This document shows, piece after piece, positions 3,336-50,935 of a stretch of 64,000 nucleotides of DNA (position 1 is the stretch's first letter; each line of letters opens with the position of its first letter). The notes beneath the pieces were generated by a model. The model made no database searches, had not been told where the DNA came from, and saw nothing but the letters and a program-made list of their open reading frames with translations. Source of the DNA: Gammaproteobacteria bacterium. GTDB taxonomy: Bacteria; Pseudomonadota; Gammaproteobacteria; JAJFKG01. The DNA lies in the NCBI GenBank assembly GCA_965116795.1, contig OZ220716.1:1674503-1738502 (forward strand), given 5' to 3'. Made by a program: the position numbers and the translations under genes.

Positions 3336-4748
3336 TCATTTGTTATGGATTGGAAATGTCACCGTAACAGCTAACCCTGTGCCATCAGCATGCGCAGCAT
3401 CTAACGTGATATTGCCATGATGTAATCCGACAATTTGTGACACAATTGCCAACCCTAATCCACTGCCAGTCGAGTTGTTGCCTAACATGCGATAGAAACG
3501 TTCAAAGACACGTGTGCGTAATTCAGCTGGGATCCCAGGGCCATTATCGATAACTTGCAATATAGCATATCGCGAGTCACGGGTTAATTTTACATACATA
3601 TGACCGTGTTGTGGTGTATAACGGATGGCATTATCAATTAAGTTACGTAATAGAATAGCTAAAGCAGTCGTATTACCTAGAATAGTCACATTACTTTCTG
3701 AGCTAATGAATTCAATGTCGATCTGTTTCTCATAAGCAACAGGTGCTAATTCAGCAACGCTATCGCTGATTATCGTTACTAGATTAAGTTTTTTCTGTTC
3801 ATTACTGTCTGTATCCGGATTTAGTCGACTGAGTATTAATAACTGTTGCACGATATGCGAGCTGCGATCGACAGCTTTAATGATGTTTTTCAGCGAATGT
3901 TTTAATTTATCTGGATCTGTGGTGTTGAGTGCGACTTGTACTTGAGTACGCAAGGCAGCCAATGGTGTACGTAATTCATGGGCTGCATCGGCAGAAAAAC
4001 GTTGTTCACGTTCGATGCCTTCTTGTAAGCGTAGAAACAATTTATTTAATTCATTCACTAATGGACTAATTTCTTCGGGCACTTCGGTTACGTTAACAGG
4101 TTCTAGATAATGTGATTCACGATGGGCGACTTCTTCGGTGACGCGATTGAGTGATGATAAGCTGCGACCGACGATTATCCAAATGAGCAAACCAAAAAAG
4201 GGGTAAGTAATCAGTAAGATGAGAATGTCATTTTTCATGATCCGATGGCTGAGCACATCACGGATACTATAACGTTCAGCAAAAATAACTTTATTGCCAT
4301 TTTCTGGGTGTACGGTCATGAAAACGCGCCACGTTTCCTGATTGATAGTACGATTAGAAAAGCCTTCTTGATCAAGGCTTAAATCAGTAAGTGGTGCGTT
4401 AGGAGAACTAATTAGTAATTTATTATCTGGGCTCCAAATTTGAAACTCAACATGATTAGCTAAATAAGGTGAATGTATCGGCTTGTCTTGATCTTTAAAG
4501 TAACGCAGTTGACGCAGCAATTCTGGTAACTTATGAATATTATCGTTAAGGTAAGCAAATTGTTGATCTGAATTTTTAGTGCCTATAATTGCTTGTAGTG
4601 CAATGTTATCTTGTAATAATTCAGCATCTAATTGTTGCTGTACTTCTTGTTCGTTTAATACTAAGTTACTCAGTGTTGATATCACAGTCATCAACACCAC
4701 ACCGAGTAATAAATTAATTAATAAGAATTTACGTATCGAACGTGTCAT
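3336..4748 (-). CDS. pmrB: sensor histidine kinase PmrB/QseC family
   Basis: Two TM segments, H-box FSADAAHELRTPL, N-box NLIDNAIRY, G-boxes DNGPG and GSGLGL; overlaps cognate regulator. Confidence 0.9.
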   Translation of the reverse strand: MTRSIRKFLLINLLLGVVLMTVISTLSNLVLNEQEVQQQLDAELLQDNIALQAIIGTKNSDQQFAYLNDNIHKLPELLRQLRYFKDQDKPIHSPYLANHVEFQIWSPDNKLLISSPNAPLTDLSLDQEGFSNRTINQETWRVFMTVHPENGNKVIFAERYSIRDVLSHRIMKNDILILLITYPFFGLLIWIIVGRSLSSLNRVTEEVAHRESHYLEPVNVTEVPEEISPLVNELNKLFLRLQEGIEREQRFSADAAHELRTPLAALRTQVQVALNTTDPDKLKHSLKNIIKAVDRSSHIVQQLLILSRLNPDTDSNEQKKLNLVTIISDSVAELAPVAYEKQIDIEFISSESNVTILGNTTALAILLRNLIDNAIRYTPQHGHMYVKLTRDSRYAILQVIDNGPGIPAELRTRVFERFYRMLGNNSTGSGLGLAIVSQIVGLHHGNITLDAAHADGTGLAVTVTFPIHNK

Positions 4749-12259: not shown

Positions 12260-12371
12260 TATACTCTTCGCGTTTTAAATTTATACTTTGTTGGCTGCCC
12301 GATTTTACCACAGTCATGGCTGCACTATACACTCTCGTGACAAAATCGTTTGCTGCTTTGCTTTGAGTATA
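12260..12371 (+). repeat. MITE-like repeat family B, degenerate copy with internal deletion
   Basis: Starts TATACTCTTCGCGTTTTAAATTTA, ends GCTTTGAGTATA; homologous to 21028, 47925 and 50808. Confidence 0.88.
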
Positions 12372-13757: not shown

Positions 13758-13990
13758 ATCATCCCATGGTTTGCCCAAAAGGTCTCTACACAAGTAACGC
13801 AACTACCTCCTTTCCACGGCCGTCATCCCGCGGCTTGACCGCGGGATCCAGAGAGTCGTGTATATTATTCTAATATTCCCCGTCGTTTTATCTCTGAGCG
13901 TTGTTCCCTGGATCCCGCGGTCAAGCCGCGGGATGACGGCCGTGTGGGAAAATTTTTTGTATAAGTTTATCCACTCAGATCTTCATAGAA
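13758..13990. repeat. repeat family D: inverted pair of GTCATCCCGCGGCTTGACCGCGGGATCCA palindromes with conserved flanks
   Basis: 37-bp perfect inverted arms 13815-13851 and 13908-13944; left flank matches 59185-59247; right flank matches 21780-21816. Confidence 0.92.
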
Positions 13991-16531: not shown

Positions 16532-16819
16532 ATGAAGAAAAGTAAATTGAGCACGACCCAAATAGTAACGATGTTGTCGGAAGGAGAAGCGGGATTATCG
16601 GCAGGGGATTTATGCCGCAAATATCAGATTTCGTCTGCGACCTATTATAAGTTAAGAAGTCAATATGCGGGTATGAGTGTGTCTGAGCTAAAACGCTTAA
16701 AGGAACTAGAGGCAGAGAATCAGCGATTAAAAGCGATGTATGCTGATATTAGCTTGGAACATAAGATATTAAAAGAGGTACTTGAAAAAAAGTATCCAGA
16801 GCTGCTAGACGAGAATTAG
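16532..16819 (+). CDS. IS3 transposase OrfA
   Basis: HTH (DLCRKYQISSATYYK) plus leucine zipper ELKRLKELEAENQRLK. Confidence 0.93.
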   Translation: MKKSKLSTTQIVTMLSEGEAGLSAGDLCRKYQISSATYYKLRSQYAGMSVSELKRLKELEAENQRLKAMYADISLEHKILKEVLEKKYPELLDEN

Positions 16820-16845
16820 TCAGTGCAATTTGCCAGAGATATTCA

Positions 16846-17649
16846 TTGAGTATTAATCGCAGTTGCCAACTGATGTCTATCAGCAAGACAGGGTATTACT
16901 ACAAGAGCAAGAAGCATACATCAGATGGAGAAATATTATCTTATTTGCTTAATTTAACAGACAAGTATACACGTTGGGGATTTGACAAGATGATGTTGAA
17001 AGTTAAACAAGAGCAAAGAGGTTGGAACCATAAACGTGTTTATCGAGTTTACCGTGAACATGGGTTAAATATTAGGATAAAGCCTCGTAAACGATTAGCC
17101 AAAGGAGAAGCAAAGATGTTGTTGCAACCTATTGCCAGGAATATCTGTTGGTCGATTGATTTTATGTCAGATGCATTAGCATGTGGCACTAAGTTTAGAA
17201 CGTTTAATGTTATTGATGATTATAACCGTGAATGTTTGCTGATTGAGGCAAGTTATTCTTTTCCAGCCAAGCGAGTAACGCAATTGCTTGACCAAGTTGC
17301 CATAACCCAAGGTTATCCAACAATGATACGTGTTGACCACGGGCCAGAATTTGAGTCTTATCATTTCAAGGAGTGGGCTAAGCAACATCACATATTGCTT
17401 CACTTCATTCAGCCTGGCAAGCCAGCACAAAATGGATTTATTGAGCGTTTTAACCGTACGTATCGTGAAGATGTATTGGACATGAACTTGTTTAGAAATT
17501 TTAATGAAGTCAGAAAAATTACTCAGCAGTGGATCAACTGCTACAACCAAGATAGGCCACATGAATCGTTGGCTGGACTGTCTCCTGTGCAGTTCAGACA
17601 ATACCGGAAACAAATCACAGGCAATGAGAAATTTTCTACTGTAGACTAG
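16846..17649 (+). CDS. IS3 transposase OrfB (DDE core; probably made as a -1 frameshift OrfAB fusion)
   Basis: WSIDF, VIDDYNRE, VDHGPEF, PGKPAQNGFIERFN, YN..RPH. Confidence 0.95.
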   Translation: MSINRSCQLMSISKTGYYYKSKKHTSDGEILSYLLNLTDKYTRWGFDKMMLKVKQEQRGWNHKRVYRVYREHGLNIRIKPRKRLAKGEAKMLLQPIARNICWSIDFMSDALACGTKFRTFNVIDDYNRECLLIEASYSFPAKRVTQLLDQVAITQGYPTMIRVDHGPEFESYHFKEWAKQHHILLHFIQPGKPAQNGFIERFNRTYREDVLDMNLFRNFNEVRKITQQWINCYNQDRPHESLAGLSPVQFRQYRKQITGNEKFSTVD

Positions 17650-17852: not shown

Positions 17853-18428
17853 CAGGAAATTTTTATTATTCATACAAATAAGGGGGGGTTATGCTTGGTG
17901 TTACTGAGAAGCGTATGTTTACGGCTGTACAGAGTGGCGAAAAAGGGGTAGTTAAGTTTTTGCTACAGCGTGGTGCCAGCATTGAGGCAAGAAGTGAAGA
18001 CGGCTTTGCCCCTTTATATGTGGCTGCAGAGTATGGCCAAAAAGAGGTAGTTGAGTTACTGCTACAGCATGGTGCCAGCATTGAGGCAAGAAGTGAAGCA
18101 AGAAAAAGCGGCGGTACCTCTTTACATATAGCTGTATGGAATGGCCGAAAAGAGGTAGTTGAGTTACTACTAAAGCATGGTGCCAACATTGAGGCAAGAA
18201 CTAAATACGGCGGTACCCCTTTATGTATAGCTGCAAGGAATGGCTACAAAGAGGTAGTTAAGTTACTACTACAGCCATGGTGCCAGCATTGAGACAAACG
18301 AGGAAGACGGCTATCCTATCCCTTTACATATAGCTGTATGGAATGGCCGAAAAGAGGTAGTTGAGTTACTGCTACAGCATGGTACCAGCATTGAGGCAAG
18401 AACTAAATGCGGCTTTACCCCTTTATAT

Positions 18429-21026
18429 ATGGCTGCAAGTAATGGCCACAAAGAGGTAGTTGAGTTTTTGCTACAGCGTGGTGCCAACATTGAAGCAAGA
18501 ACTGAAAGAGGCGTTACCCCTTTATATATAGCTGTAAAGGATAGCCAAAAAGAGATAGTTGAGTTATTGCTACAGCATGGTGCCAACATTGAGGCAAAAG
18601 AGGAAGACGGCTTTACCCCTTTACATATAGCTGCAAAGGATGGCCAAAAAGAGATAGTTGAGTTATTGCTACAGTGTGGTGCCAACATTGAGGCAAGAAG
18701 TGAAGGCGGCGTTACCCCTTTATATATAGCTGCAAAGAATGGCTACAAAGAGGTAGTTGAGTTTTTGCTACAGCGTGGTGCCAACATTGAGGTAAAAACT
18801 GAAGGCGACGATACTCTTTTCCATATAGCTGTACGGAATGGCTACGTGGAGATAGCTGATGCTTTACTAAACCAGTCTTTTCCATATGGGAAAAGTGTGA
18901 TATCAGCTGCAATTGAAGCAAAGCAACCTGTACTTTACTTTGCAGCACAAAACTGCAACGCGGGTGATTATAAAGAACAACTGGATTTTTTACTTGAAAA
19001 TGGCATGGTGAGTGATGGTCTGTACTTTAAGCGGCGAAGTGCAGTGTATTATGCTTTACAGCAATATCAGCCTGAAGACGATACACAAGTCTTGGAGACA
19101 TTATTCAGATATTGTCAGCATTTTCACCGAGTTGTTTTTAATTTACTTATTAAGAAAGGAAATCCTAGCTTAATAGAAGCTTTAATTAGGGGTCGTCGAG
19201 ATATTGCCAATAAGCCTATTTCATCATGGGTTTCACCTCTTCCTCAGCAGGAGAATGGTGTGAAATATGACAATACCACGTTACTCCAGTATTTAATTCA
19301 TACTGAGCTTGCGCTGCGCGCCATGGAGGACGATAGTCCTAGGCGCGTAGTCCGCGGAAGTCGAGGCTTGTCTTCGCGTACGGAGTTGCCGGAAAGCCAA
19401 CGCTCGCAGGCAAGCGAAGAAAGTGATGACAAGCTTTACTCGGCGTCGAGTCATTTGAGAGCCGATCTGCAGTGTGCGCAAGTACACGAAGGAATCGGTG
19501 ACGAGGACGGCCGCGGCAACTTGGCTGTCGCGTTGGCGAGTCCGATTTTGGGCATGGATGACCAAAATCTTTCACGAGGTAGCGACACAACTGCGGGTGG
19601 AAAGAATTTTGATGTCCTTTCCCCTTTAGTTAATTACGGGGCTCACATATTAGCCTGTGATCAACAGTTCTTAGTACAACTCATTCAAAACAAGAAAGCC
19701 ACTGAATATGCAAAATATTTTTTAGATCAGCTTGATGATGATCCATCTGCAGTCAGTCAGAGCTCTGGAGGAGCAGCAGAGAAAGTATATTCTAATCGGC
19801 AGGAATTTTTGGATAGAGAATTGCTTAACGCTGTTAAAGATAGAGATCTAGAATTGATTAACAGGCTACTTGACTTTAACGCTGATCCAAACTGTCTTAA
19901 TGATAAGGGATTGTCGCCTACTCAAATTGTCGCTGAAGGAGCAGCATGGCTTGACACATGCTACGAAGTATTGTTAGCGTTAGTTAAGAAGGGCGGAGAA
20001 TATAGAGATTCTTCTGAAGGCCTTTCTAGTGATGTTGAACAAGACGGTGCAAAAACGCTTTTTTTAAGAGGGGTAGAAACAATAAAAAGAAGGATTGTAA
20101 GACAAAGCAGGTATGCGAACTTTTCAATTAAAGATGAAGATGGTTGGCATCGCCCCGACGGGAGCCTTCTTTTATTTGGTTTAACAGTATTATCGGCAGC
20201 CGCAATATATGTTCTATTTCTCTATATGACTTCTAGAATCAAAAATTATCATCTTATTGATAGCTGTGCTGATGAGTATAGTGTGGGGGTTTATCATTAC
20301 GAGCCTAACAATTATACTAATCATAGTCAGTATGGTTATAGCGGGCTTTATTCGGATATTAATAGCTATGAGGATTGTGCAGAGGATTGGCTCATATTAA
20401 GGCTGCTAGCAACGCTTCCTCTAGCATTAGTGCCTGCTGGATTATGTATGATCGTTAGTACACTTATGACTTCTAGCTTAGCTGGACAACTTGGAAAACA
20501 AGTTAAAGAATTATCATATAATGCACTATCTAGTAGAGACAAAGAAACCATTGAAGATCTTGAGCGTAAAGCGGACAAACTAGAGGCAGCTGCTGCCCTT
20601 TTTTCCGGTTCTTTAACTAAAGCTGCTTCTAATGGCAGTAAAAGAAATGGTGAGGCAGCCTCTTTAGTTTCTCAAGGAGGAATGTTTTCTCATGGAAAAG
20701 ATGATTCACGAAGTGAAGAAGAAGTAGAATTTAGTACCGTGGCAGAGGACTTGAGAATTTCTGATGAGGAAGGCTCTTTAAGTAGTTCTCAAGGAATATT
20801 TTCTCAGTCTTCTGCTGAGAACTCTACTGGAAAAGTTGATTCACGAAGTGAAGAAGAAGCAGAATTTAGTATCGTGGTAGAGGACTTGAGAATTTCTGAT
20901 GAGGAAGGCTCTTTAAGTAGTTCTCAAGGAATATTTTCTCAGTCTTTTACTGAGACTGAAAAAGATGATTCACGAAGTGAAGAAGAATTTAGTATCGTGG
21001 TAGAGAGCCCGAGAGAGTTTTTCTAA
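18429..21026 (+). CDS. ankyrin-repeat protein, downstream reading frame (865 aa)
   Basis: Ankyrin repeats at N-terminus, further degenerate ankyrin units, two predicted TM helices, Ser/Glu-rich repeated tail. Confidence 0.75.
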   Translation: MAASNGHKEVVEFLLQRGANIEARTERGVTPLYIAVKDSQKEIVELLLQHGANIEAKEEDGFTPLHIAAKDGQKEIVELLLQCGANIEARSEGGVTPLYIAAKNGYKEVVEFLLQRGANIEVKTEGDDTLFHIAVRNGYVEIADALLNQSFPYGKSVISAAIEAKQPVLYFAAQNCNAGDYKEQLDFLLENGMVSDGLYFKRRSAVYYALQQYQPEDDTQVLETLFRYCQHFHRVVFNLLIKKGNPSLIEALIRGRRDIANKPISSWVSPLPQQENGVKYDNTTLLQYLIHTELALRAMEDDSPRRVVRGSRGLSSRTELPESQRSQASEESDDKLYSASSHLRADLQCAQVHEGIGDEDGRGNLAVALASPILGMDDQNLSRGSDTTAGGKNFDVLSPLVNYGAHILACDQQFLVQLIQNKKATEYAKYFLDQLDDDPSAVSQSSGGAAEKVYSNRQEFLDRELLNAVKDRDLELINRLLDFNADPNCLNDKGLSPTQIVAEGAAWLDTCYEVLLALVKKGGEYRDSSEGLSSDVEQDGAKTLFLRGVETIKRRIVRQSRYANFSIKDEDGWHRPDGSLLLFGLTVLSAAAIYVLFLYMTSRIKNYHLIDSCADEYSVGVYHYEPNNYTNHSQYGYSGLYSDINSYEDCAEDWLILRLLATLPLALVPAGLCMIVSTLMTSSLAGQLGKQVKELSYNALSSRDKETIEDLERKADKLEAAAALFSGSLTKAASNGSKRNGEAASLVSQGGMFSHGKDDSRSEEEVEFSTVAEDLRISDEEGSLSSSQGIFSQSSAENSTGKVDSRSEEEAEFSIVVEDLRISDEEGSLSSSQGIFSQSFTETEKDDSRSEEEFSIVVESPREFF
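19305..19580. repeat. GC-rich palindromic segment lying in frame within the ankyrin gene
   Basis: Abrupt GC increase; hairpins GCTTGTC/GACAAGC, CTTCGC/GCGAAG, GCCGAT/ATCGGT, GATTTTGG/CCAAAATC. Confidence 0.65.
20703..21005 (+). repeat. intragenic tandem duplication (units at 20703, 20838 and a partial one at 20967)
   Basis: Near-identical GATTCACGAAGTGAAGAAGAA... units encoding DSRSEEE.EFS.V.EDLRISDEEGSLSSSQGIFSQS. Confidence 0.92.
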
Positions 21027-21027
21027 C

Positions 21028-21153
21028 TATACTCTTCGCGTTTTAAATTTATGCTTTGTTGGCTGCACCTGTTCACAATAGTCATGTATTTTAATACACT
21101 CCTGTTGTTCACAGGTTTGCCGCCTCGCCTAAATTCAAAACGCTTTGAGTATA
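21028..21153 (+). repeat. MITE-like repeat family B (126 bp)
   Basis: TATACTC...GAGTATA termini; homologous to 47925 and 50808. Confidence 0.92.
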
Positions 21154-21424: not shown

Positions 21425-21472
21425 ACTTCCTCCACATCCGTCATCCCTCAGGGCTTGATCGCGGGATCCAGA
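21425..21472 (+). repeat. repeat family D, degenerate single arm
   Basis: CCGTCATCCCTCAGGGCTTGATCGCGGGATCCAG. Confidence 0.7.
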
Positions 21473-21779
21473 GAACAACATTTAGCACTAGAAAAATAGG
21501 TAGTGTCTCATAAGAGTTGTTAGTGTAAACTTCTCTTTTGAAAATGATCAAAAGAAGCGAATATCGAAATGGTAAATGTGAAATTACTTGAACCTAAAAT
21601 CCGCACACGGATCAAACGATTGCCTAGGAGAAAATTTATTTTTCAAAGTTAGAGAAAATGCATAATATTGTCATTGGATTGCTTATCAATCGGCATGAAT
21701 TTGGAGTGGCTATATAATGTTTAACAACTCTTATGAGACACCGCCAAAATCATTAATGAAATCATTTCTTTTGTCTAAC

Positions 21780-47924: not shown

Positions 47925-48052
47925 TATACTCAAAGCGTTTTGAATTTAGGCGAGGCGACAAGCCTTCGAATCAACAGGAGTGTATTGAAATACATGACTG
48001 TTGTGAGAAGGCGCAGCCAACGAAGACCTAAATTTAAAACGCGAAGAGTATA
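47925..48052 (-). repeat. MITE-like repeat family B (128 bp)
   Basis: Reverse complement of 50808-50935; TATACTC/GAGTATA ends. Confidence 0.92.
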
Positions 48053-50807: not shown

Positions 50808-50935
50808 TATACTCTTCGCGTTTTAAATTTAGGGCTTTGTTGACTTCGCCTTCTCACAAAAGTCATGTATTTTAATACACTCCTTTTGATTCGAAGGCTT
50901 GCCGCCTCGCCTAAATTCAAAATGCTTTGAGTATA
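50808..50935 (+). repeat. MITE-like repeat family B (128 bp), between minC and minD
   Basis: TATACTCTTCGCGTTTTAAATTTAG...CTAAATTCAAAATGCTTTGAGTATA. Confidence 0.92.

Follow-up and report, generated by a model that had tools for sequence, protein, structure and literature searches.

The window analyzed here, a 64,000-nucleotide stretch of contig OZ220716.1 from a gammaproteobacterial genome (G000), contains on its + strand an 865-residue open reading frame (18429..21026) that encodes ankyrin repeats, a 94-codon insert (residues 295-389), two hydrophobic segments and an acidic repeated tail. The tail (20688-21014) is built from about 2.5 repeats of a 135-bp unit. An upstream ankyrin piece of 133 residues on the same strand (17891..18292) is separated from it by a frameshift close to position 18277, where contigs from two sequencing runs match the window.

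The insert is a whole mobile element of 282 bp (19312..19593), which carries no gene and folds on the + strand. A sequence-only reading of this DNA had placed a GC-rich multi-hairpin segment at 19305..19580. The segment is real, but its true limits are set to 19312-19593 by seven other full copies. The GC content is 57.8% within the element and 39.2% and 39.3% in the 600 bp on each side. We recovered the three inverted repeats previously noted as 7, 5 and 8 contiguous Watson-Crick pairs at 19366/19434, 19461/19499 and 19544/19569. A MITE core thought to be shared with other repeats was not confirmed: the element showed no link to the window's other repeat families, and the hairpin concerned varies across its own family.

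The 282 bp correspond to 94 codons and are stop-free in the frame of the ankyrin ORF, in agreement with the in-frame insertion originally claimed. A disorder-like composition had likewise been proposed, and 72% of the 95 affected residues are indeed disorder-promoting, compared with 55% in the ankyrin part. The flanks failed to score as a single repeat with a small in-house profile, so that we have no indication for the interrupted ankyrin unit described earlier. An AlphaFold single-sequence model of the host protein has pLDDT values below 50 from residue 150 on and is uninformative there. Overlapping antisense frames had been reported as open; ORFs of 90 and 83 residues do exist, but each minus-strand frame contains one or two stops inside the element. 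Neither a homolog lacking the insert nor one spanning both flanks was found among 7998 scored candidates and 52 profile hits, and P0020 aligns to the host protein solely to the right of the insert. Of 448 candidate long proteins, 3 contain the encoded peptide, and these belong to the window's lineage; it also occurs in two stand-alone short ORFs, one of them an unplaced ORF of 100 residues.

An effector role of the ankyrin protein, as had been suggested, is plausible because its genome contains a Dot/Icm IcmK gene. The further idea, that the element supplies an effector with new, functional protein sequence, lacks support: the family as a whole does not share the open frame, and the element breaks genes elsewhere. 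What stands out about the element is the way it lands. Although the insertion in frame is real, it is probably incidental; the host gene is already split, and the added protein sequence is probably a tolerated accident. The version found in the window's lineage has 94 codons and one stop-free frame, and insertions in that phase and orientation would survive in long, probably dispensable proteins.

Copies and distribution of the element family

A BLAST search of the window's genome returned seven other full copies at 88-99.6% identity, and thus eight full copies in all. Four copies are identical to one another, and a single base separates the window copy from a further one, which indicates that movement was recent. 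Relics include a 37-bp fragment of the 5' end and a copy that has diverged to 72% identity, both found by BLAST, and a weak 57-bp 3' fragment found with a profile. In contigs from eight sequencing runs, the form in which these data were considered, we saw no joint skipping or circling the window copy, which does not speak for the absence of such forms.

The frame is open in all eight full copies. Two of them lie in frame in long ORFs (the ankyrin ORF and a 1708-residue NACHT ORF), two run into the ends of genes, in antisense orientation or in another frame, and four are in no long ORF. The diverged copy is in frame in a HEAT-repeat ORF and the 5' fragment in a WD40/SH3 ORF. At the DNA level, in-frame fusion into unrelated proteins is therefore seen in four long ORFs, and all four insertions share one phase. 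In the diverged copy (L026:5001-5336), the first hairpin is extended by a segment of 54 bases, and position -4 is an A.

These in-frame fusions raise the question of whether the element is a palindrome of the RPE/MITE type, whose open frame is kept to provide useful sequence to secreted effectors. Rickettsia RPEs fuse in frame with proteins according to the available part of PMC2229807, and the single phase in four long ORFs, the frame open in all eight full copies and the IcmK gene would fit. RPEs and the Coxiella elements QMITE1/2 resemble our element in being small, multi-copy, structured, GC-richer than their host and sometimes in frame (available parts of PMC2229807, PMC10969869 and PMC5896051). 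PMC2229807 describes RPEs of 105-146 bp with terminal inverted repeats of about 12 bp. Our element is about twice as long as an RPE, has neither a terminal inverted repeat nor a direct repeat, does not conserve its frame, and occurs in many families rather than in one genus. The kinship with RPEs and MITEs thus fails on its build: there is no terminal inverted repeat beyond a 2-base CG...YG pairing, no duplication and no TA termini. Several results speak against a selected frame. Of 31 representatives in other genomes, just 3 have the window's frame open (the ends of some being approximate), and 32% of shuffles contain an open frame of one kind or another. Six of the eight full copies do not continue the frame of any long ORF, and a frameshift lies upstream in the host gene. 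More generally, length is divisible by 3 in 19 of 35 representatives and any open frame exists in 14 of 35; an open coding frame is not a family trait. We consider a palindrome maintained for its protein sequence very improbable. Of the earlier description as selfish palindromic DNA, what stands is a selfish, multi-copy, hairpin-rich element inserted in frame; an RPE- or MITE-like build does not.

A sequence model of the family matches 21 of 150 genomes from the same class (Gammaproteobacteria) and 2 of 150 from the phylum. The 21 positives include G047, whose locus L163 is in the pools used below for the empty-allele, left-junction and end-type counts; none of our conclusions hinges on this genome. 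By BLAST, the family is present in 4 of 40 relatives. In species genomes, a core pattern located 62 loci, almost all of them from records titled Gammaproteobacteria and covering Methylococcales, Coxiellaceae, Berkiella, Chromatiales and Thiotrichaceae. In metagenomes it located 95 stretches, of which 80 were fetched; chance explains a few of these, whose scores are weak or absent. The complete genome G052 has at least 42 matches at 96-100% identity among 364 candidates. When 40 of these 364 candidates and 40 of 294 in G141 were scored, nearly all were full length at 96-100%. It is likely that G052 and G141 each contain hundreds of copies. In G052, one copy is found inside another (L184:1236-1782), with the C at -4 that is usual for the family.

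The G141 type matches 310 plasmid records, all from Piscirickettsia, at 3708 places, and two Piscirickettsia plasmid regions that we inspected carry no repeat annotation. The family accounts for an unannotated, gene-breaking repeat in this genus of fish pathogens. No match was obtained for the window and L035 elements in plasmids, for the L032 element in phages, for the L164 element in Escherichia coli genomes or for a 5' pattern in viral contigs. Rfam contains no matching family: the window gave four chance-level matches outside the element, with E values of up to 5, and the loci of 10 relatives gave nothing but a tRNA. Our literature search, whose scope left out most subscription papers, bioRxiv supplements and the supplements of structured-motif surveys (e.g. 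10.64898/2026.09.22.753630), returned no published description in the text it covered. The element family is real, widespread and apparently undescribed.

Fold of the element

The + strand of the element folds with z-scores of -3.74 and -3.65, and none of 200 shuffles was as stable; the - strand has a z-score of -1.73. This confirmed the hairpin-rich character expected from the sequence. The + strand is the stabler one in 29 of 29 elements with both RNA and DNA parameters. The consensus of 23 aligned elements comprises a first hairpin, a central multi-way domain with a long-range closing helix, and a 3' domain, and 27 of its 37 predicted pairs show a compensatory change. For a 38-pair structure, 92.3% of cells are paired, compared with 79.9% after shuffling and 28-45% after sliding, and 24 of 38 pairs change on both sides, which none of 500 shuffles match; this test used relatives that are not independent and a structure derived from the same alignment.

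In the window copy, all parts lie on the + strand. The first hairpin (19314..19350) pairs 19314-19322 with 19342-19350, and its apex is a GATA loop here and a C(GNA)G triloop in most relatives. The central domain (19352..19516) is closed by the long-range helix formed between 19352-19357 and 19511-19516, and it contains two variable arms (19360-19444 and 19461-19499) and near-invariant motifs at 19443-19453 and 19504-19517. The 3' domain (19526..19587) consists of a helix between 19526-19531 and 19582-19587 around the hairpin 19544-19569. It is followed by an unpaired 3' tail with the sequence C-N-N-N-Y-G (19588..19593), which is found in 12 of 12 end types. The last two bases of this tail are able to form pairs with the two bases that open the element (pairs 1-337 and 2-336). 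The near-invariant core at 19451-19456 reads TCATT followed by T or G and thus resembles the cleavage motif of topoisomerase I (TopA), possibly as an internal binding site; its C is predicted to be paired.

A complex multi-way fold with invariant unpaired motifs could belong to an RNA. A + strand transcript might act as a small ribozyme or serve as the substrate of a reverse transcriptase (RT); it would enter the DNA of the lagging-strand template through reverse splicing or at a nick made by TopA, and copying would follow. The G-U type pairs and GNRA loops of the fold are in line with such a route, whereas the triloop apex favors DNA and no Rfam family matches at a useful score. Triloop apices indicate DNA, given the stability of DNA mini-hairpins. 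Here, a C(GNA)G triloop caps the first hairpin in 18 of the 25 representatives scored (of 35 given, 3 had no anchor and 7 no hairpin). GNA triloops are enriched (12 versus 3.9), and so are GNRA tetraloops (6 versus 1.8). We will return to the RNA route below.

Insertion sites, strand bias and the topoisomerase I reading

Among the loci collected, we identified an empty allele for 26 of 107 filled sites. In 25 of the 26, the gap between the flanks is 0, and the insertion is therefore clean, with the target neither duplicated nor lost. The remaining allele has a gap of -1 and lies in a poly-A run of an error-prone assembly. At the left junction, a C occupies position -4 in 221 of 230 distinct junctions (22% background), and it is the commonest base at -4 in 67 of 69 sequence types. 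In the window, this is the C at 19308 in the target tetranucleotide directly left of the element (19308..19311, + strand). Positions -5 and -2 of the 230 junctions fit the TopA motif loosely, with T in 97 and 79, respectively; T is found at -1 in 111, and C at -5 in just 7. For right junctions and end types, we excluded the G052 type, whose 3' end lies in a homopolymer. Among the others, A or T is found at +1 in 108 of 147 right junctions, and the step seen most often is T|A (29 of 117). G052 itself has a G at +1 in 26 of 46 sites. At the 3' end of the element, position -6 is a C in all 12 end types, whereas position -4 is a C in 4 of 12.

The strand that folds coincides with the G-rich strand, and thus with the lagging-strand template, in 44 of 45 copies in G141, 43 of 52 in G052 and 10 of 11 in G000 (permutation p values of 2e-4 and 4e-4, binomial 0.012); for G141 and G052, the replication halves were fitted and the sign of the skew was read from fetched loci. 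Gene direction is not tied to this bias (8 sense/6 antisense, and 0/9). Insertions into genes occur in both orientations and with stops, and thus the element is not spliced out and the bias does not reflect gene direction.

The landing rule of the family points to topoisomerase I. The E. coli enzyme cleaves a TA step four nucleotides downstream of a required or conserved C, with the motif TCNTTA/T, according to the available text of PMC9352719. The preference for C at -4 is general to topoisomerase I and reverse gyrase and is set by Arg169, as stated in the accessible part of PMC7587558; an R169A variant is reported to prefer A at -4 instead. The element's sites share with this cleavage the C four bases before the break, the preferred T|A step and a single-stranded substrate (same sources). 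Host TopA is thus favored by the C at -4 and the T|A step, both of which match its published cleavage pattern. We found TopA in five of five genomes tested. Presumably, these host TopAs have an arginine at the position matching the -4 pocket of the E. coli enzyme, as judged from a comparison that had no E. coli row. TopA is universal in bacteria and present in 14 of 14 controls, so its presence is uninformative, and the element is patchy (21 of 150 and 2 of 150 genomes). To our knowledge, type IA topoisomerase I is the sole enzyme class that cuts single-stranded DNA four bases past a C.

We regard a single-stranded DNA element mobilized through host TopA as the best reading of these data, and give it about an even chance of being right. 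Such an element would move as single-stranded DNA at the replication fork, where the folded lagging-strand template would hold both of its ends together. TopA would cut the target at CNNN|N, stay on the downstream 5' end and leave a 3'-OH, and the ends of the element would then be joined into the TopA break instead of the original partners. The left junction would remain a TopA site because CNNN is retained, and this retained site would permit excision from one strand while the copy on the other is kept, resulting in net spread. In its known action, TopA rejoins the same strand. The target conforms to the TopA cleavage rule, but the element's own 3' end breaks it. A simple swap of two TopA-cut ends fails for the right junction because the 3' tail has a C at -4 in just 4 of 12 end types. 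Our literature search returned no papers on intermolecular strand transfer by TopA.

In its fullest form, the reading describes a widespread class of bacterial transposable element without any enzyme gene, in which a folded single strand makes the host topoisomerase I its transposase, reaches hundreds of copies per genome and occasionally adds 94 codons to a protein. We put this forward tentatively, at slightly under an even chance. If true, DNA mobility would gain a new route, and TopA would provide its first natural example of recombinase activity; the insertion chemistry would be scarless and require just a C. The family also offers a concrete mechanism for an old puzzle, the in-frame entry of short palindromic DNA into proteins.

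Other enzymes and neighboring repeats

Non-autonomous elements are assumed to borrow the transposase of a related element. We thus have to consider a non-autonomous single-strand element that is moved in trans by an HUH enzyme (an IS200/IS605 Y1 transposase, a RAYT-like protein, an IS91 Y2 transposase, or a plasmid or phage Rep or relaxase), with its target rule relaxed to one base. IS200/IS605 elements and their ORF-less PATE derivatives share with our element the missing terminal inverted repeats and target duplication, the hairpins at each end, a landing site 3' of a target motif and an active strand on the lagging-strand template (available parts of PMC7290912 and PMC5027513). They insert, however, after a specific word of 4-5 nucleotides (PMC7290912, in the text available), whereas a single C at -4 is required here. 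Our element also differs from PATEs in its conserved central multi-way fold and in that no cognate tnpA-bearing element was found in complete genomes that hold many recent copies. In the way it works it resembles an IS200/IS605 PATE, yet it fails two features of membership, a specific target word and, in the genomes and loci examined, ends shared with a tnpA-bearing element.

Some Y1 gene is found in four of five and three of five genomes tested, and the Y1 superfamily has subclasses without a known DNA partner, as described in the accessible text of PMC6006769. A transposase that is unrecognized or has since been lost could have escaped the three Pfam models used. With these models, G052 gave no RT hit, no Y2 hit and distant Y1 proteins only. 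These Y1 proteins are of another kind than those in G000, G041, G055 and G141, and BLAST gave no clear link between them and the IS200-like group found in the other genomes (best E value 0.001). Y2 was found in G041, G043 and G141 and not in G000, G001, G042, G052, G037, G158 and G133, which make up three of five and four of five genomes tested. In the genomes and loci examined, no copy is split by an ORF or bears one, and a transposase common to the carriers was not found.

None of the specific partners that we tried withstood inspection. Candidates for an autonomous partner in G041 and G045 are partial matches that represent shortened copies or chance. A GC-rich multi-hairpin stretch on the minus strand of G041 (L140:1940-2140) adjoins a 229-residue Y1 gene, and it obtains no score with the family model. 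The window's genome harbors two IS200-like families of 570 bp with 4 and 3 copies (G000:C1:1987842-1988415 and six other places), both inserted after TTTAT; this target and their ends differ from those of our element. An IS91 relationship had been suggested by the CTTG end, but the IS91-like ends in G141 are unrelated, those in G041 are not cleanly delimited, and no Y2 was found in G000, G042 and G052. In G141 (L263-L270), we noted 52 IS91-like transposase matches with AT-rich, blunt-looking ends, many of them interrupted by the element. Taken together, we judge mobilization in trans by an HUH enzyme unlikely, although it deserves serious weight, and retain host TopA as the preferred reading.

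The strand bias and the precise insertion also bear on the RNA route introduced above. Endonuclease-lacking group II introns of the RmInt1 type insert precisely, without duplication and with the same bias for the lagging-strand template (PMC6698660, in the part available). The terminal G of our element is invariant, and RT genes are found in four of five genomes tested, the exception being G052. The element is, however, too short for an intron of this type, has the wrong ends, gives no Rfam match to domain V and carries no RT gene. Group II introns have ends that differ from CG...YG. They further rely on a target pairing of 5-6 nucleotides, which our element lacks, and the element breaks genes (comparison based on the available text of PMC6698660). 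Insertions that are antisense or out of frame argue against splicing out, and we rejected a plain intron on the grounds that Rfam returned no intron match and that genes are hit in both orientations with stops. A move through RNA appears improbable to us, and mobilization of single-stranded DNA through TopA remains our preferred reading.

Several other repeats surround the element in the window. A family of about 128 bp (21028-21153, 47925-48052, 50808-50935 and 12260-12339) has TA-type ends and terminal inverted repeats and is truly MITE/RPE-like; one of its copies abuts the stop codon of the ankyrin ORF. GC-rich, REP-like palindromes are paired as inverted doublets at 13770-13944, 21452-21479 and 59198-59365. 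Just upstream of the ankyrin gene, positions 16532-17649 hold a two-ORF element with four copies in the genome, which we take to be IS3-like.
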